A stretch of DNA of 64,000 nt from a virus: IMG/VR virus record IMGVR_UViG_3300045988_122031, positions 29,757 through 93,756 of that record; one strand, written 5' to 3'. The notes beneath the pieces were generated by a model. It was given only the letters and a program-made list of their open reading frames with translations, was not told the origin of the DNA and made no database searches. Below, one piece after another: positions 2,042-39,372 of the stretch (its first letter is position 1; each line of letters begins with the position of its first letter). The translations under genes and the position numbers were made by a program.

Positions 2042-4069
2042 TTAAAGTTGTCCTAACTGAGCAAAAGAATATTCAATCATCTTCTTATCCATGTCTGGAT
2101 TCATCATGGCGTGAACAACTTTCTTATCATAATCAATGCCAGTAATGTATCCAATATCTCCATTAAATGTGTTTCTTTCATAGTCATTACTGGTTTGAAG
2201 CACTTTATCTCCCACATAAAACTTCTTTGTTTTGCCATATGTAACAAACCTTGCATTGGATTTATTTTTATACAATTCTTTCTGAATTGCTACATTAAGT
2301 TCTTCTGTAGAGTTTATGCAACCTGACTTACGAGGAGAGATTACAACCACATTATCCATACCGTCTTGTTTAACACACGTCATGAACTGCTTTACAACCA
2401 AATTAAAAATATTCTCACGATTATTTCTGAAAATGTAAAACATATCATGCAGCTCTCCATGAACTTGTTTAGCACTAAAATCCTCAATTGGAGAAATTGC
2501 TCTACGCACTTTTCTAGCATCACTAAGAATACCAGACTTTTCTGCTTGTCTCATTGGCTTCGTTAATTGCACTGAATCTAACTCATCCATTTTGAGTAGA
2601 TCAGAGAAAATGTTACCATATCCAATTGGTGGTAACTGCATATGATCTCCGCTAATAATAATCTTTGTACCTGGACGAATTGCCAAAAGTAATTGATAGA
2701 ACAACCCTGCATTAACCATACTTGCTTCGTCTAAAAGAACTACATCAATTGGTAACGGATTGTCAGCATCGTGCATAAACGAGTCTACGCCTTGTGCTTC
2801 AAGTAATCGATGAATAGTTCTCGCTTCTAATCCTGTTGCTTCTTGGATTCTCTGTGCCGCCTTAGCAGATAACGCACATGCAGCAATGCTATAATTTCGT
2901 TTCTTATAACATCTGATAATTGGTTTTAATAAGGTAGTTTTACCCGTTCCAGCCTCACCACTAATTAAAACAACATTTGTCTGTAATGCAGTGTAGATGC
3001 CTTTGTTTTGCTCTTCGCTGAACGTAAAACCTTCTTCTTTTTCAACTTCAGCAATAACTTGTCCAATTTCGTTTACAGTGATTATCTCTTTTTTCTTGGT
3101 AGAATTAGTATCTCTGCGTTCTTGCAACAATGCCAGTATATTCATTTCTGTGTCATGGTACTTTTTCAAACCAATTAGTTCTCCACTAACATAGATGTCT
3201 GGAGGAAAATCATTTTCAACATAATCGTCAAATATATGTAAACATTCACCAACTGTTGCACTAACTTCTGATCGCAACGTGGCAATCGCCATATATGTAT
3301 GTCCGTCACTCTCGCCAAGATTCGTTAAATAATACGTCATAAAATAATCAAGTCGATACTTGGAATCTCTCAATTCTGGACGGATCTTTAAAGCAATATC
3401 ATCAACTTTCTTAAATCCAAGACCTCTGATCTTAGTTAAAATGTAAGGATTTGTGTTGATTTTATACTTTAACTTTTCTGGATCTGGCTCAGCTTCTACC
3501 AATTTCTTAATCATATTAAAAGTAATGCCATGAGGCTGTAGCATAACTACAACCTCGGAAATCACATAATTATTAATGATCTTCTCTCTGAGCTTCGCCC
3601 ATGTCTTGTTGCCAAGTCCTTTAATCATAGATGTGTCAATCGTCTTACATTTTCCTGCCATAACATCCTCAATAATATTTGGATATTCAGCAAGCAAGCT
3701 TTCAGCAATTGATTCTTTCGCTTGTGTTTTTAAAAACATTAACTGATCAGTCTGTGTTTTTGGAACGTCTGCAACAACCGAAATCGGTTTATATTGATAT
3801 TCATGATATTTTTGAGAATAAATACATGTCGCTTTTACATTATACTTTGTCCCAATATATAACTGTTGAACTTCTCCAACAAGTTTACTTGCAACATATT
3901 CTTTATCTCCTGAGTCATCAAATTTATTATCATTGTATGGACTGAATTGTGGTATTTGGTCTTTTGTACAAAACGCATAGATACCAAACATTGATTCTTC
4001 ATTATAAAATATCTGATATGTAGGAATCATTTCAAACTCGCATACCTTTCCGCATGTCTGACTCTCCAT
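2042..4069 (-). CDS. RecD/Pif1-like SF1B DNA helicase (AAA_30 type), N-terminal and central part, terminated by an in-frame TAA
   Basis: Walker A ISGEAGTGKTTLL, Walker B VVLLDEASMV and motif GDHMQLPPIG. The protein continues in frame into 1817..2041 after a single stop. Confidence 0.8.
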   Translation of the reverse strand: MESQTCGKVCEFEMIPTYQIFYNEESMFGIYAFCTKDQIPQFSPYNDNKFDDSGDKEYVASKLVGEVQQLYIGTKYNVKATCIYSQKYHEYQYKPISVVADVPKTQTDQLMFLKTQAKESIAESLLAEYPNIIEDVMAGKCKTIDTSMIKGLGNKTWAKLREKIINNYVISEVVVMLQPHGITFNMIKKLVEAEPDPEKLKYKINTNPYILTKIRGLGFKKVDDIALKIRPELRDSKYRLDYFMTYYLTNLGESDGHTYMAIATLRSEVSATVGECLHIFDDYVENDFPPDIYVSGELIGLKKYHDTEMNILALLQERRDTNSTKKKEIITVNEIGQVIAEVEKEEGFTFSEEQNKGIYTALQTNVVLISGEAGTGKTTLLKPIIRCYKKRNYSIAACALSAKAAQRIQEATGLEARTIHRLLEAQGVDSFMHDADNPLPIDVVLLDEASMVNAGLFYQLLLAIRPGTKIIISGDHMQLPPIGYGNIFSDLLKMDELDSVQLTKPMRQAEKSGILSDARKVRRAISPIEDFSAKQVHGELHDMFYIFRNNRENIFNLVVKQFMTCVKQDGMDNVVVISPRKSGCINSTEELNVAIQKELYKNKSNARFVTYGKTKKFYVGDKVLQTSNDYERNTFNGDIGYITGIDYDKKVVHAMMNPDMDKKMIEYSFAQLGQL

Positions 4070-18085: not shown

Positions 18086-18625
18086 CTATTCATTGACTTC
18101 AACTGGCTCTAATGTGTCTTTATTTTTAACAAAATCCAACATGACTTCTTCTTGTATATCTTCATATAATTTGTCATAGTATGTTTTCTTTAATTTAAAA
18201 AATGCTACTTTCAAATCTTCACAATAAAACCTACCTCTTTGCCCATTTTTAATTTGCCGATAAGGATTTTCAGGGTGCTCATACACAACAGAAATTGTTC
18301 CATCTCCATCATATGTAGTCTCCATCGAAATACTACCATTCTTAAGAGCATGATACATAACCTGATTATCTTCAATAAACCCATATGGATGCCACTCATA
18401 ATCATCAGGAATAACAGTTGGTTCAATAACATCAAAATATTTCTCTAATTCATCTCCAGACATCACACCAAGATGCACTCCATTCGCACCAAATCTAAAA
18501 TTGATAACATTTTCATCTGTATCAATCTTAACAATCTCGCATACCTCGCCAAGATTATCGAAGCATCCCATTGGTTTCTTTAATTTAATCTTATGGTCTG
18601 TTGTCAATTCATTAATATTAATCAT
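18086..18625 (-). CDS. Hypothetical protein
   Basis: 179-aa ORF. Confidence 0.5.
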   Translation of the reverse strand: MININELTTDHKIKLKKPMGCFDNLGEVCEIVKIDTDENVINFRFGANGVHLGVMSGDELEKYFDVIEPTVIPDDYEWHPYGFIEDNQVMYHALKNGSISMETTYDGDGTISVVYEHPENPYRQIKNGQRGRFYCEDLKVAFFKLKKTYYDKLYEDIQEEVMLDFVKNKDTLEPVEVNE

Positions 18626-19653
18626 ACTGCCACCTTACCTTTCTTGCTAAAATGTTCATTCCATGCATCGACCGCTTCTTGCTGATCAGCGGTTAGAGGA
18701 TCATTGAATCTTTGCAGTGCTTGTACGATTCGTCCATTTTGTATTTCAATCGTCACTAACGATTTTTCTGGTTCTTTTACTCTTCTCAAGAACATAATAT
18801 GGCATTCGCCATCAATGACTCGATCTATGTAACTTGCCACACAATTATTCTGCTGTACCGCTTCGTCTTTAATGTCTTGAGTGGAGTCTGGATAAAAGAA
18901 TCTCAGTCCTTTATATGTAAATTCGTATTCTTTATTAATACGGCTCTTAAAGACTTCTTCCGAAAATTCTTTTTGTAATCTTTTGTAATTTCTTGTGACA
19001 ATATCCATTGTTGTTTTGAAATGTCTTGGATATCTATCAAATTTATGACTGATTGCGTCCATCATACGGGCATAATCACGCAATTCTCTGAGCAACCAAT
19101 TTATAGCAACAATTGCTTCAAACGTCATTATCTTATCCATATAAACAAATACATCTGCGAGATTATATCCATAATCCTTATTTAAAGACGTTAATATTTC
19201 CATATAATAATCTGTGCTACGATTAGCAAAAAAGAACATTAAGTCGGATTGAGTCACTGTCATATATTGTGTTTGAAGAATTGTTTGAACATAATCTGGA
19301 TATTTTTTGTAAAAATCAACAAACTTGTTATTTAATAAGCGGTTCATCTTCACACCAATACAATAATTTCTTAACCATTTTGGTACTTCATTAATTGAAT
19401 ATCTGAAATCTTCTGCAATTTGTTTGTGCGTAAACCCTATAGCGAAGAACTGCTCACATACTGAATATTGACTTGCATATTCAAACAAAGTTCCCAAATT
19501 ATAATCAATGAAGCCACATGTAGTTCTTCCCATTTCACAATTTCTTCGCCAATTTACATATTTTAGAAACTCTGCATAATGTGGATCGGACACAAACAAT
19601 TTATCCAATTCATCAGCTGAATGTCCAGACAGAATATTATTTAAAGCTTTCAC
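18622..19653 (-). CDS. Hypothetical protein (start uncertain; the in-frame upstream extension has no canonical start codon)
   Basis: 343-aa ORF from a GTG. A protein-like in-frame sequence continues upstream to 19767. Confidence 0.5.
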   Translation of the reverse strand: MKALNNILSGHSADELDKLFVSDPHYAEFLKYVNWRRNCEMGRTTCGFIDYNLGTLFEYASQYSVCEQFFAIGFTHKQIAEDFRYSINEVPKWLRNYCIGVKMNRLLNNKFVDFYKKYPDYVQTILQTQYMTVTQSDLMFFFANRSTDYYMEILTSLNKDYGYNLADVFVYMDKIMTFEAIVAINWLLRELRDYARMMDAISHKFDRYPRHFKTTMDIVTRNYKRLQKEFSEEVFKSRINKEYEFTYKGLRFFYPDSTQDIKDEAVQQNNCVASYIDRVIDGECHIMFLRRVKEPEKSLVTIEIQNGRIVQALQRFNDPLTADQQEAVDAWNEHFSKKGKVAV

Positions 19654-19814: not shown

Positions 19815-20285
19815 TTACACCCATGCTCGAATACTACAATGACCCATCTTAAGATAAAAATCATATATATATGTACATAATTTTTTCTCATCGTCAAATA
19901 TCTTGTCAGACATTTGCACCCACCAAGCATGTAATCTTTTCTTTTCTGTATTCAAAACCAGTACAGGAATATGACGTTCATATGCAATTGCAATCTCCAT
20001 AGATGTACCAATGCTTTTCGGATCATTCGCATTTACTACAACAAGATCACTATTTCTAACAAAATTTGTATCAAATCTCATTACTTCTTTTTCTGTATCA
20101 TGCAACTCTGTTTGAAAATTGTAATAATCAACAGGGTTAATAATATTAACTTCTTTCATATTAACATTAAGAATCCTACGCATAGCAATAATTTGATTGC
20201 AAATTCTTTCTCTCCAAGCATTCTGCTCTTCAAACGATAAATCCTGCATACCGCCTGCTAAATAAATCTGAAATACATTACTCAC
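19815..20285 (-). CDS. Nucleoside 2-deoxyribosyltransferase-like (NDT/Rcl-DNPH1 fold) protein
   Basis: FQIYLAGGM (N-terminal YLAG motif) and GTSMEIAIAYERHIPVLVL (GTxxExGxA catalytic Glu region). Confidence 0.55.
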   Translation of the reverse strand: MSNVFQIYLAGGMQDLSFEEQNAWRERICNQIIAMRRILNVNMKEVNIINPVDYYNFQTELHDTEKEVMRFDTNFVRNSDLVVVNANDPKSIGTSMEIAIAYERHIPVLVLNTEKKRLHAWWVQMSDKIFDDEKKLCTYIYDFYLKMGHCSIRAWV

Positions 20286-20827
20286 TGTTTCATTTCTCCT
20301 TTCACAACATAGGACTCAATCAATCCTTTTCTTAGTCGATCATTCATATCCTGAATCGCTTCCTCAATTGTCTTAAATTTACATGAACAAATATGCTCTT
20401 TGGTCAAATTAACAAATGAATATGTGCCATCTGACTTGTTCCTAAAAATAACAACCACTGATTCTTCTCCATCTGGTTTCTTAACAATAAATCTGAGCGC
20501 ACCTTTTTGTGTTTCCTTTTTATTTTCAAGTAAAATAGTATAATTGATTTTTAACCAGCTACCATATGCCCATACTTGTTTAATTTTTTCTTCAGCATTT
20601 TGAAGTACACAATGTCTATAATCAATACTCTCGATATTATAGACAAGTGATTCAATGGCTTCTTTATCATTTTTTATTGTAATTTGACCATGCGTTCCAT
20701 TTCTTCCATCTGCAATCGCATCAATAAATTCTTCTACAGTATATTCTTTATCAAGCACAACATCATATTTAGTATATTTATCGTTATCAGAACGTGGGCG
20801 TTTTATTAATTTAAACATCCCTATCAC
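20282..20827 (-). CDS. Hypothetical protein
   Basis: 181-aa ORF. Confidence 0.5.
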   Translation of the reverse strand: MIGMFKLIKRPRSDNDKYTKYDVVLDKEYTVEEFIDAIADGRNGTHGQITIKNDKEAIESLVYNIESIDYRHCVLQNAEEKIKQVWAYGSWLKINYTILLENKKETQKGALRFIVKKPDGEESVVVIFRNKSDGTYSFVNLTKEHICSCKFKTIEEAIQDMNDRLRKGLIESYVVKGEMKQ

Positions 20828-21005
20828 CTACTTTCTTATCAAATGTTTCTTGCAAATTTAACCAGAACTGCCCATCATCAGCAAACCCATAATGGTCTGC
20901 CATTGTTTTCGCAAATTCTTTTGTAACACTTTGTAATCCGTCAATCAGCCCTTGCACATAATCAACATCTATGCCAATTTTACTCGCAAGCTGATAAGGA
21001 GTCAT
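20811..21005 (-). CDS. HigA-like HTH (XRE family) domain protein; the conserved N-terminal segment lies upstream of the first ATG
   Basis: YQLASKIGID...VQGLIDG...EFAKTMADHYGFADDGQFWLNLQETFD (HigA FWLNLQ hallmark). The in-frame upstream sequence FHPGECLEEFVESCR matches the HigA HPGE motif but has no start codon. Confidence 0.5.
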   Translation of the reverse strand: MTPYQLASKIGIDVDYVQGLIDGLQSVTKEFAKTMADHYGFADDGQFWLNLQETFDKKVGDRDV

Positions 21006-21081
21006 CCTACAAGATTCAACAAATTCTTCTAAGCATTCGCCAGGATGAAAGCAATTTCGTCTCCAATCTTTACATACATTT

Positions 21082-21912
21082 TTACACCATTCCTCTCACA
21101 ATTCGTTCATTTGTTGTCATCAAGAAGTTATTGATACGATCCCAGTCTGGTTCGTCTGGCAAAGTTGTAGTTTTAAATGCGTTTTCAAAAGCTTGATAAA
21201 AGCAATCAAATAGCTCCCCAAAATCATTAGATGGAACAAATCGTTTGATTATATCATCAGTCGCTCTTCCTTTGATCACCATACTACTACAATAAGCTCC
21301 GTCTCTCAGTAATAATAAACTTTGCCTGAGAAGCTCGAAGTTGTAAGTTTGCATTGTAGATGTTGTCAATAACGCTGTTCCATTGTGTATTACTCTAATT
21401 ACATGCATCATCGCCTTACAAACCTTCTTCTTTACTAAATTAATCTGATCTTCTGTTAAGATAGTTTCGTCATACAATCTGATTGTTTGTTCTTCTAAAG
21501 CCTGTGAATATCCGTTAAATGCATACCAAATTTTCTTTGATAAAAACATATCTCGATTTTTAATCAACTCCATACCAATATCGGATACATATAAATAGCA
21601 TTCTGGACGATTATACAACAACTCTAATGCTGTAGGATTCCCTTTGGCACATAAGTCAATATATTTTTTTAATGCATACATTACAGTATCAGTGTCTTTG
21701 CTGGCGTCTACCGATTTCATACTATTATTCAACAAAATCTCTCTTTTATCACTAAGGAAAACACCACGTAAATCAATGTCAGAATCCTCTGTATTTGTTC
21801 CGTAAGCATAACTTCCACCTAGTGTGAGAAAAGCGATTTTATGAGGATAATCTCGCAAAAAATCATACTCTGTAGACGAGTTTATGTAATCTTTCACTTC
21901 TTCAATTGTCAT
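21082..21912 (-). CDS. Pol-beta superfamily nucleotidyltransferase (PF10127-like predicted NTase)
   Basis: LGGSYAYGTNTEDSDIDLRGVF fits GS-x(10)-DxD. Confidence 0.6.
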   Translation of the reverse strand: MTIEEVKDYINSSTEYDFLRDYPHKIAFLTLGGSYAYGTNTEDSDIDLRGVFLSDKREILLNNSMKSVDASKDTDTVMYALKKYIDLCAKGNPTALELLYNRPECYLYVSDIGMELIKNRDMFLSKKIWYAFNGYSQALEEQTIRLYDETILTEDQINLVKKKVCKAMMHVIRVIHNGTALLTTSTMQTYNFELLRQSLLLLRDGAYCSSMVIKGRATDDIIKRFVPSNDFGELFDCFYQAFENAFKTTTLPDEPDWDRINNFLMTTNERIVRGMV

Positions 21913-22460
21913 GATCTCACCGCCTTTGCCCTATGCATTATTTTTTTAATATTACCAAGTTGCCAACTTACCCATTGAATACTCTTTCCAAATTCTTTAG
22001 CTATGTATTTATGTTCAATATCATCAAGTAACATATATATAATTTTCTTCTGCTTGTCTGACAATTTGTTAAATTCTCCTTGATAATATACTGTTGTTAA
22101 TGCTTGACTCTCTACGGCATCGTTACTCACAAGCAAACTACCAATTGTTAATTCTTCTGCGTCAATTCTTTCGTCAACAGGTGTATCCAATGATTCCGCA
22201 TTTCTGTTCATTTTCTCTGTTGGGCTATGCCATTTTATATAATATTTATTAATTTCTGACTGTAATACCCATCTAAAATACGTCCCAAAATTACCTTTAG
22301 ACTCATCCCATTTTAATGCTGCTTTGCAAATTGCCATACGACCAAGATCCATATATGTATCAAAATCTTTAAATTTTGTAAAATACTTCTCATGCAAATG
22401 CCAAATCAAAGAATAATTATCTTCAATCAGCTTTCGCTGTTCATCATTTAGTTTCTTCAC
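21909..22460 (-). CDS. Second phage sigma-70 family sigma factor
   Basis: MKKLNDEQRKLIEDNYSLIWH... (region 2) and YIAKEFGKSIQWVSWQLGNIKKIM (region 4). Its N-terminus is near-identical in pattern to 15345..15887. Confidence 0.7.
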   Translation of the reverse strand: MKKLNDEQRKLIEDNYSLIWHLHEKYFTKFKDFDTYMDLGRMAICKAALKWDESKGNFGTYFRWVLQSEINKYYIKWHSPTEKMNRNAESLDTPVDERIDAEELTIGSLLVSNDAVESQALTTVYYQGEFNKLSDKQKKIIYMLLDDIEHKYIAKEFGKSIQWVSWQLGNIKKIMHRAKAVRS

Positions 22461-37302: not shown

Positions 37303-39372
37303 TTAAAATTTAATTTTAAGAACTCTTTCTGTTGCACCCTTGACTTTAACGATCACATCATCTCGTTTTGTAGAACTGAAGCCAATTCCTGATAACTGGT
37401 TTGGATCATCTGCGACATGCATTTTGCTTCCTAAAGCCTCAAATACTCTCTTGTGCTGTACTAATTCCTGCTTCAAAAACTCATTGAAGAATCCATTTGG
37501 AGTATCTTCATTTACACATCCGTTTAACATAAACAGATAATGTTTATGTCCAATACCTGTCTGCTCGTCCCAATAGTTAGGTGAATAACACATTACTGTT
37601 ACTGGCACAAACTGATTTGTATTGATTCCACAGATTTCTCTTGAAGATGTTGTTGATGGAAGTTTCTCTTTGATTGTGAATACTCCATCTTTTAATGTAA
37701 CTGTAGCCACTGGAACATCTTCGTTCTGACGTAAAGGCTTATCATATTCAAATTCATAAATCTGTCCATCAAATTCAATCTCTGCTGTAAATCCAGAAAC
37801 TCCATTTCTATGAGCAAAATTTCTTACGAAAAATTCATATTCTCCGTCAACCATTTTGGATTTATCTGCCCATGTAATATTTTCTACGGCAGGCTCTCCT
37901 CTATGTGGATGAGTTACATCAACATCAAGGCTTCCACCAGTTGCATAATCATGCATTGAAGCATAATAGATATGATGACGTGGAGTTCTGCAATGTGCAT
38001 CAAAATCATCCTGATTCCAATCTGTATTTGCATTCCACTGAATTGAGAATCTTAAAACTCCATCAACCGCACCGCCTGCGTTCTTAACTCTTTCTTTCAT
38101 TTCACTGTCTGTCATATTTCCTGAATATGCCCAGCTGAAAGGATTACTCCACTTCATCATGTTCTTGGCATCTTTGTTTACAGGTGCGATCAGTGAAACC
38201 ATGTTCTTCTTATGTCGATTTTCAAACAAGACTTCTAATTCTTTTGCGGTTGGAAGAACATCTGATACAAATTTCTCTGCACTGATCTCTTCTACTTTAG
38301 AGAATTTCTTAGGATTTACAGCGACTTCCTTACTCATCTCATCAAAAATATCTAAGCCGCCCTGGATACGTGGTGCTGCATCACGATTACAAAACAGAAT
38401 ATTGTTTACCGTAATATCGTCAAGTCTTGCAAATCTACGCTGCAATGAATCCATATATCCTAAATCGGTTACAGTTTTCTTTGCATCCTCAAGCATTTTC
38501 TTCGTAAAAATTGCCTTTGGTCGTTTGTAATTCGCAGGAGCTACAACATTTTCATAAGCTTTTACTGCATTATCTAAATCCATACCTTCGCTGATATTCA
38601 CAAGTAATGTACCGATACTATGGTTTCTAATACGACCAATTACATCTCCGATCGTCATGGCTTTTGTCCATGTGTATGTATCTTTTTCTTCATCTGACAA
38701 ACCGTTGTATTCTCGCTGATATTTTCTAAAATCTTTTAATACTCTTTCCCATTCCTGTCCTCTATAAAGAGTATTTGAAGCAATCAGTTCTAATACTGTA
38801 TCAACAGCTTCTTCTGTAATTTCATCAAGTGATCTTTTAAACACATTCTTTCGATCTCTCACTTTTGCTTTAATTGTAGGAATATCAGATTTCCTTTCCA
38901 ATAACCTCTCTGGAATCGGTGTATACATATGAGTCCATTTGATAATCTGCTTATCTTCTGTATACTCATTTGTGGTTTTTGTACCAACTGTATTTGTAAA
39001 ATGTCTCCAAATATCTTTGATCGGCTTTGATTCGACATATGTTCTTAAGGCATCAACTACTGGCTGAAATACTACATCATCTGTGTCGATCTCCCAGATT
39101 GTATGAATCTTGCCGTCAACAATTGCCACAGCTCCACCGATTGTTTTAATAAAGTTTCGGCAATGACCACAGTCATATTCTCGTCGTTTGCGATACATTT
39201 TGTTTGTTCCTTCAGGAAAACTACTCAGATATACTTCCCACAGCACATCTTTATCAATATCAGTTTCATACAATGTAGAATTGTTTTTCTCTACATAGTC
39301 GAGCATTTTATTTAAACGCTCTGACAATTTGTTTAAAAAATTGCTCCAGTTTTCATTCATTGGCGTACACAT
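37303..39372 (-). CDS. Large hypothetical protein (689 aa) adjacent to the NAD cluster
   Basis: Long ORF. No motif recognised with confidence; the C-terminal region is rich in H/D/W. Confidence 0.55.
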   Translation of the reverse strand: MCTPMNENWSNFLNKLSERLNKMLDYVEKNNSTLYETDIDKDVLWEVYLSSFPEGTNKMYRKRREYDCGHCRNFIKTIGGAVAIVDGKIHTIWEIDTDDVVFQPVVDALRTYVESKPIKDIWRHFTNTVGTKTTNEYTEDKQIIKWTHMYTPIPERLLERKSDIPTIKAKVRDRKNVFKRSLDEITEEAVDTVLELIASNTLYRGQEWERVLKDFRKYQREYNGLSDEEKDTYTWTKAMTIGDVIGRIRNHSIGTLLVNISEGMDLDNAVKAYENVVAPANYKRPKAIFTKKMLEDAKKTVTDLGYMDSLQRRFARLDDITVNNILFCNRDAAPRIQGGLDIFDEMSKEVAVNPKKFSKVEEISAEKFVSDVLPTAKELEVLFENRHKKNMVSLIAPVNKDAKNMMKWSNPFSWAYSGNMTDSEMKERVKNAGGAVDGVLRFSIQWNANTDWNQDDFDAHCRTPRHHIYYASMHDYATGGSLDVDVTHPHRGEPAVENITWADKSKMVDGEYEFFVRNFAHRNGVSGFTAEIEFDGQIYEFEYDKPLRQNEDVPVATVTLKDGVFTIKEKLPSTTSSREICGINTNQFVPVTVMCYSPNYWDEQTGIGHKHYLFMLNGCVNEDTPNGFFNEFLKQELVQHKRVFEALGSKMHVADDPNQLSGIGFSSTKRDDVIVKVKGATERVLKIKF

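Follow-up and report, generated by a model that had tools for sequence, protein, structure and literature searches.

The DNA analysed here is a 64-kb stretch (the window; positions 29,757 to 93,756 of the IMG/VR virus record IMGVR_UViG_3300045988_122031) from a large human-gut Caudoviricetes phage. On its minus strand, directly after a gene for an RlaP-family nucleotidyltransferase (NTase), lies a helix-turn-helix (HTH) coding sequence, and this locus is very likely an ordinary, recent frameshift allele of a stand-alone 89-codon phage gene of the HigA family (XRE HTH). The gene starts at ATG 21079, 2 nt past the NTase stop. One T has been lost from a run of four (T4) in the lineage of the window, leaving a run of three (T3), and translation from ATG 21079 would stop after 16 codons at TAG 21031-29. 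The parts of the locus are as follows.

21029..21079, minus strand: 5' fragment of the HigA-like gene, with ATG 21079-77 and 16 codons MYVKIGDEIAFILANA, ended by a premature TAG that results from the frameshift.
21048..21050, minus strand: lesion site, a TTT run within GCTTTCATCC, which is TTTT in intact orthologs (GCT TTT CAT, Ala-Phe-His).
20811..21047, minus strand: remaining HigA-like coding sequence, out of frame with the start, from His12 (CAT 21047-45) through HPGECLEEF...FWLNLQ to the stop TAA 20813-11.
20811..21005, minus strand: 64-aa open reading frame (ORF) reported by gene callers, from Met26, where AGGA overlaps the ATG and leaves no usable Shine-Dalgarno sequence.

The HigA-like frame on the minus strand is open from 21095 to the stop TAA at 20813-20811, with the upstream stop TGA at 21098-96, and reads stop-EEWCKNVCKDWRRNCFHPGECLEEFVESCR-M(21005)TPYQ...FWLNLQETFDKKVGDRDV-stop, carrying FHPGE...FWLNLQ. 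The 30 codons from TGA 21098-96 to ATG 21005 contain no ATG, GTG, TTG, CTG, ATT, ATC or ATA. The open frame overlaps the final four sense codons and the stop of the NTase gene, whose 3' end reads GGA ATG GTG TAA. Reading of the frames thus confirmed what an earlier note on this DNA had described, namely an ORF at 20811..21005 with FWLNLQ, an HPGE motif in frame upstream of it, no start codon back to the stop at 21096-98, and an overlap with the last five NTase codons. However, the offset of the HTH frame from that of the NTase is +1 (or -2), not the -1/+2 stated there, and the third frame had been overlooked. That frame contains ATG 21079-21077, 2 nt past the NTase TAA (21084-82), followed by the 16-codon ORF MYVKIGDEIAFILANA and its stop TAG 21031-29. 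The intact 89-aa orthologs begin with the same 11 residues as this ORF, MYVKIGDEIAF, and ATG 21079-77 is the true start codon of the HigA-like gene. What is left of the gene, 78 codons (HPGE...FWLNLQ), is in the -1 frame relative to this start, where no start precedes Met26. Insertion in silico of one T into the TTT run at 21050-48 fuses both pieces into a single 89-codon ORF, MYVKIGDEIAFHPGECLEEF...FWLNLQ...DRDV, and the codons of Ala10-Phe11-His12 differ as GCT TTT CAT in the intact gene and GCT TTC AT. in the window lineage. The earlier note had also considered a decayed or 5'-truncated gene; decay was the right idea, but the 5' end is not lost, as it is still present in the third frame and a single-T deletion is the cause.

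A search with the reconstructed protein returned 28 clusters, about 17 of which are 84-93-aa proteins starting MYVKIGDEIAFHPGE, with full-length identities of 61-97%. Across the junction, the window and its closest intact ortholog (L009) have the same DNA, except that L009 has TTTT. TTTT and an uninterrupted ORF are common to this ortholog and all of the 49 related IMG/VR loci; the ORF is 89 aa long (91 aa in one). In the first set of loci, T4 with an intact ORF was found in 50 and T3 in 8; in the larger set the counts were 57 T4 versus 15 T3. The ratio of non-synonymous to synonymous polymorphism (pN/pS) is about 0.20 among 34 distinct intact alleles, indicating purifying selection; the value for codons 1-25, 0.41, is biased, since the regular expression used for gene finding fixed several bases there. 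Residues H12-P13-G14 are invariant in the family alignment (A3). Intact orthologs (TTTT) therefore exist, and a defined lesion (TTT) explains the disruption in the window. The earlier note had named two observations that would speak against its proposal: an independent ortholog gene with a normal start was indeed seen, whereas the HPGE stretch, which was to be absent or non-conserved, is conserved and coding in the orthologs. The 19-mer across the T3 site has no exact match in IMG/VR, the 1.6-kb region has no match among the INPHARED phage records by blastn in distant mode, and a scan of GTDB genomes with the single protein gave no close relative. One ortholog lies on a 35-kb contig of Anaerostipes sp. 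Marseille-Q3525, which is the sole hint of a host.

As in the HigA family, the restored protein has HPGE near its N-terminus, FWLNLQ towards its C-terminus and a five-helix XRE HTH fold; in the window copy, the frameshift separates both motifs from the start codon. The 64-aa ORF scores 26.6 bits against TIGR02607 and the reconstructed 89-aa protein, with the N-terminal part, 40.5 bits (E=1.7e-10). Because the N-terminal residues raise the score, the HPGE stretch is homologous sequence and no chance resemblance. A HigA profile search of the window gave a single match, at 21095-20814 (E=7e-49), and the HTH region matches phrog_1381. The family profile matches HigA/VapI structures in the PDB, aligned from HPGE, with E-values from 2.4e-18 (3trb) to 2.8e-07; the other matches are 3cec, 7csv, 6jpi, 6f8s, 2eby, 4mcx and 2icp. 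The AlphaFold model of an intact ortholog has a predicted local distance difference test score (pLDDT) of 85 and consists of a beta-hairpin (residues 2-11) and helices 13-23, 28-35, 39-46, 54-64 and 67-85. Intact orthologs are named 'addiction module HigA family antidote' or 'Plasmid maintenance system antidote protein [Caudoviricetes sp.]' in public records. Similar to HigA/VapI antitoxins (TIGR02607), which are about 90-100 aa long, the phage protein has the two motifs and the five-helix XRE fold. Unlike a typical HigA, the phage gene scores below the family cut-off, lacks a HigB partner and lies between an RlaP NTase gene and an ORF lacking an assigned function; in addition, the window copy is frameshifted.

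The T3 junction is identical in every T3 locus fetched (L001-L008, L063, L079, L081 and L085). The allele is common to at least 13 independent human-gut short-read assemblies from different studies and assemblers, and the 64-aa call (P0018) occurs on 92 contigs in 167 index blocks of public human-gut assemblies. Across 833 nt covering the NTase gene plus the initial 145 nt of the HigA gene, the T3 loci show 0 differences, one mosaic locus excepted. In this region 9 + 3 nt, or 12 positions, separate them from the nearest T4 loci, and the same NTase protein adjoins both T3 and T4 alleles. The identical flanks and the distance to the nearest T4 loci indicate that the T deletion happened once, recently, on a successful lineage. 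The 3' part of the T3 loci occurs in three haplotypes, pointing to reshuffling by recombination since then. Recurrent or phase-variable switching between T4 and T3 was ruled out, as one private haplotype runs across all T3 loci. A search of Joint Genome Institute (JGI) metagenomes with the T3 19-mer gave 12 matches, of which 10 are chance matches in unrelated DNA, one is the same allele (L063) and one is L060. Two candidates for an independent T3 event were set aside: L060 (VOFC01002820.1), where TTT is accompanied by a 2-nt deletion and an in-frame TGA, and L074 (ERZ1761047 contig_11666), a noisy assembly with heavily fragmented genes. Both belong to a divergent lineage and resemble long-read indel noise; the HTH copy of L074 retains TTTT, with other differences in the upstream stretch.

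The gene has been lost or broken repeatedly. In L089 and L096, whose NTases are 95% and 87% identical, the NTase stop is followed directly by the downstream ORF and the HTH gene is cleanly absent. Independent lesions were found elsewhere: the start codon ATG is changed to ATA in L071, GAA to TAA at codon 15 in L073, TGC to TGA at codon 17 in L075, an A4 run is shortened to A3 in L163 and a G3 run extended to G4 in L164. The HigA-like gene is therefore dispensable, an accessory gene, given the clean absences and the independent lesions. The NTase gene and the downstream ORF are intact in all lineages with a lost or broken HTH gene. An NTase toxin held in check by HigA was ruled out, as the NTase is intact beside broken HigA genes and in HigA-less relatives, and so was the downstream 178-aa ORF as a toxin partner, as it is present directly after the NTase in HigA-less relatives. 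In L075 (1205-1621), the last codons of the HTH gene have given way to a gene for an IS200/IS605-type Y1 transposase, which follows immediately.

The analysis thus established the lesion and the intact ancestral state, a real and recent allele of single origin, and the accessory status of the gene. Regarding its effect, we infer that the T3 allele would be a loss-of-function or at best a strongly hypomorphic one, because any protein initiated at Met26 would be without the N-terminal hairpin and helix 1 of the five-helix fold, and Met26 lacks a ribosome-binding site. Similar to frameshift pseudogenes arising from homopolymer indels, a base was lost from a short T run and intact orthologs set the ancestral frame, with further independent indels in A4 and G3 runs in other lineages. 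Unlike the usual frameshift pseudogenes, the T3 allele is young, shows no secondary decay yet and is present at appreciable frequency in a successful phage lineage. Several observations weigh against a plain disrupted HigA-family gene. No T3 locus has a second lesion in the restored frame, and the T3 haplotype is without diversity over about 1 kb. The lack of secondary lesions is expected because the allele is young, but it also fits residual function; dN/dS within the T3 clade is uninformative, since zero diversity leaves it no power. The allele is also common (the 92 contigs), so that it is at least not strongly deleterious. In addition, a single slip of tRNA-Phe would restore the exact wild-type protein, making some read-through product possible, and the 40.5 bits of the reconstructed protein lie below the TIGR02607 equivalog cut-off of 47.7 bits.

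One alternative is that ribosomes terminating at the end of the 16-codon upstream ORF, 23 nt ahead of Met26, re-initiate there and make a 64-aa product that retains a function, for example as a truncated HTH protein. The 64-aa ORF is open and unchanged in at least 13 assemblies, still scores 26.6 bits on TIGR02607 and retains helices 2-5 including the HTH in the AlphaFold model. Nevertheless, we regard this as unlikely. No Shine-Dalgarno sequence is set apart by a spacer from ATG 21005 (AGGATG), several intact orthologs have Ile at position 26, so that Met26 is not a conserved internal start, and the product would lack the N-terminal beta-hairpin, helix 1 (residues 13-23, pLDDT about 90) and the HPGE motif. 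The youth of the allele accounts for the lack of further change.

More speculative and similarly improbable is the idea that the intact gene is an orphan HigA-type antitoxin forming a counter-defence cassette with RlaP, lost where it is not needed and perhaps still expressed at a trickle by slippage in T3. RlaP enzymes repair damaged RNA by adding 1-2 nucleoside monophosphates to its 3' ends (PMC12776372). If the idea holds, HigA would neutralise host HigB-like ribonuclease toxins and RlaP would mend the damaged RNA ends, and the repeated loss by T deletion, nonsense mutation and clean deletion would reflect hosts without a cognate toxin. The idea builds on the orphan status, the NTase adjacency and the presence/absence pattern. 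Distant bacterial relatives of the HTH protein (27-40% identity) have a HigB-like toxin gene (PF05015), of about 93 aa, upstream in at least 20 of 42 loci, whereas no HigB-like (PF05015) ORF was found in the 64-kb window (best E-value 3.9); the phage gene is thus an orphan HigA-like gene. The NTase-HTH adjacency is limited to this phage family, and neither the HTH protein nor the products of adjacent genes had a significant match among the PADLOC defence models.

Decoding of the T3 allele through -1 slippage, whether programmed or fortuitous, is very unlikely; here tRNA-Phe would move from UUC (21049-47) to UUU (21050-48) and translation continue with CAU, giving a low level of the wild-type 89-aa protein. 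The slip-site stretch of the T3 allele is GACGAAATTGCTTTCATCCTGG / GGAGACGAAATTGCTTTCATCCTGGCGAATGC, and the recoded product would contain EIAFHPGECLEEFVESCR. Perfect re-pairing is possible, with G CUU UCA read as GC UUU CAU; the remainder of the ORF is undamaged in every T3 locus; and the distance of 10 nt between TTTC and a GGAG upstream of it resembles the reported spacing of the dnaX stimulator. However, this GGAG forms conserved Gly-Asp codons that are present in all T4 alleles and is hence not an adaptation. There is no X XXY YYZ heptamer, as the zero frame is GCU UUC AUC and tRNA-Phe alone re-pairs while GCU to UGC cannot, and there is no RNA structure downstream of the T3 site, where 87 nt fold with -15 kcal/mol versus a shuffle mean of -16.35 (z = +0.48). 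In general, a T3 run is also too short for transcriptional slippage. Similar to programmed -1 frameshifting in dnaX, IS elements and the phage tail-assembly chaperone G/GT, the HigA-like locus has two overlapping frames that need a -1 shift and a U-rich site where tRNA-Phe could re-pair, but it lacks a slippery heptamer, a stimulatory structure and a conserved arrangement. The two-frame arrangement is limited to one young haplotype, and the 49 of 49 IMG/VR relatives are in frame.

An error of sequencing or assembly is a highly improbable cause of the missing T in the window. The lesion lies in a homopolymer, a class of sites prone to errors, but the T3 junction is shared by at least 13 independent short-read assemblies, and because of this sharing the TTT is no assembly error. 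T3 is also tied to a private haplotype with 12 linked differences from the nearest T4 loci. In addition, a run of four Ts is not error-prone on Illumina, which also counts against an error.

The lead of the earlier note, a ribosomal frameshift near the NTase end that would yield an NTase-HTH fusion protein, can practically be dismissed: although the open HTH frame extends upstream as far as TGA 21098-96 and so covers the last NTase codons, the orthologs are separate 89-aa genes with their own ATG 2 nt after the NTase stop, the required shift (+1/-2) would have to occur within 4 codons holding no shift-prone motif, the linker EEWCKNVCKDWRRNCF would be read in a frame that the orthologs never use, and in T4 relatives the linker frame is not continuous with HPGE. 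The search for fusion orthologs which that note had called for returned no relative of fusion length. The HTH relatives are at most 106 aa long, apart from one 168-aa deletion chimera of a sigma fragment and the HTH, and no HTH Pfam domain occurs among the best 120 NTase relatives (163-365 aa), so that neither homology search (HTH relatives; best 120 NTase relatives) found a single polypeptide with PF10127 and an HTH. The gene that matches the RlaP family (PF10127) is no more than an upstream neighbour, and this NTase is unfused to, and independent of, the HTH gene. The 168-aa chimera (P0030, on 2 Logan contigs) joins the N-terminal 112 residues of the sigma-like protein in frame with the C-terminal part of the HTH protein. 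It corresponds to about 22460-22125 of the window joined to about 20975-20811, with the NTase gene and the 5' end of the HTH gene deleted; the junction is at a shared LLxS/LAS motif, and the variant is either a genuine deletion or an artificial join made during assembly.

Every gene in this part of the window is on the minus strand. The NTase gene, the HigA-like gene and the 178-aa ORF form part of a tightly packed minus-strand operon, and a promoter and terminator scan showed no enrichment, which fits a single operon. The neighbouring and further genes of the window are listed below.

21909-22460, minus strand: sigma-70-like protein, 183 aa (phrog_351, 6.7e-18; weak Pfam matches to region 2 and region 4).
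21082..21912, minus strand: RlaP-family (PF10127) Pol-beta nucleotidyltransferase, 276 aa (PF10127 78.7 bits, phrog_388), intact and unfused in T3 and T4 lineages.
20282..20818, minus strand: downstream ORF of 178 aa (181 aa from GTG 20827), function unassigned, with its ATG overlapping the HigA stop (ATGTTTAA).
19815-20285, minus strand: nucleoside 2-deoxyribosyltransferase-like gene (PF05014, 32.4 bits), same operon.
18622-19653, minus strand: PcfJ-like gene (PF14284, 71.5 bits), same operon.
33905-35374, minus strand: nicotinamide phosphoribosyltransferase (phrog_448, 1.9e-158).
37303-39372, minus strand: 689-aa protein matching phrog_1735 (no assigned function) end-to-end (1.5e-263).

The stop of the sigma-70-like gene overlaps the NTase start (ATGA), and relatives have a 183-aa or a 177-aa version of this gene. 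Within the phage family, the NTase gene (2501-3331 in the loci compared) occurs in two allelic classes with about 53% protein identity, L097-L134 versus L086-L096, and the adjacent HTH gene is at least 89% identical; this pattern shows that the region is strongly mosaic and that a recombination boundary lies between the NTase and HTH genes. The 3' end of the HigA gene harbours a separate Shine-Dalgarno sequence, AGGTGA, for the downstream 178-aa ORF. This ORF matches no Pfam family and has only a weak PHROG match. Comparison of its 178-181-aa versions (window 20282-20827; L089 3333-3872; L096 3355-3900) revealed a near-invariant C-terminal half (SLRFIVKKPDGEES...LIESY.VKGE) and a strongly divergent N-terminal half, so that it could be a modular or diversifying protein. 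Genes further downstream vary in presence, with 168/169-aa versus 177/178-aa ORFs and a 112-aa ORF; the latter is found in most relatives between the 177-aa ORF and the deoxyribosyltransferase gene and is absent from the window. Among the replication and nucleotide-metabolism genes of the window are those for a DNA polymerase, a RecJ-like exonuclease, a DnaB-like helicase and an ExoV/Dda-like helicase, beside the nicotinamide phosphoribosyltransferase, the nucleoside deoxyribosyltransferase and the sigma-like factor. The nicotinamide phosphoribosyltransferase may possibly serve NAD+ salvage or counter-defence. No tRNA genes were found in the 64-kb window. Related IMG/VR genomes are mostly 140-165 kb in size.

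The HigA-family phage gene is already annotated in public sources, and its frameshift allele is an ordinary case. What callers report as a 64-aa 'gene' on about 92 public contigs is the end portion of an 89-aa HigA-family gene that a one-base deletion has disrupted; the proper annotation is a frameshifted or disrupted gene starting at 21079, and neither a short HTH protein nor an NTase fusion. When a conserved N-terminus lacks a start codon, the third frame and the orthologs should be checked before recoding is invoked. The intact protein is probably a small DNA-binding regulator or an orphan antitoxin, the loss of which is tolerated. The gain for the biology of these phages is that the orphan HigA-like gene is an accessory gene, repeatedly lost in a widespread gut phage family.

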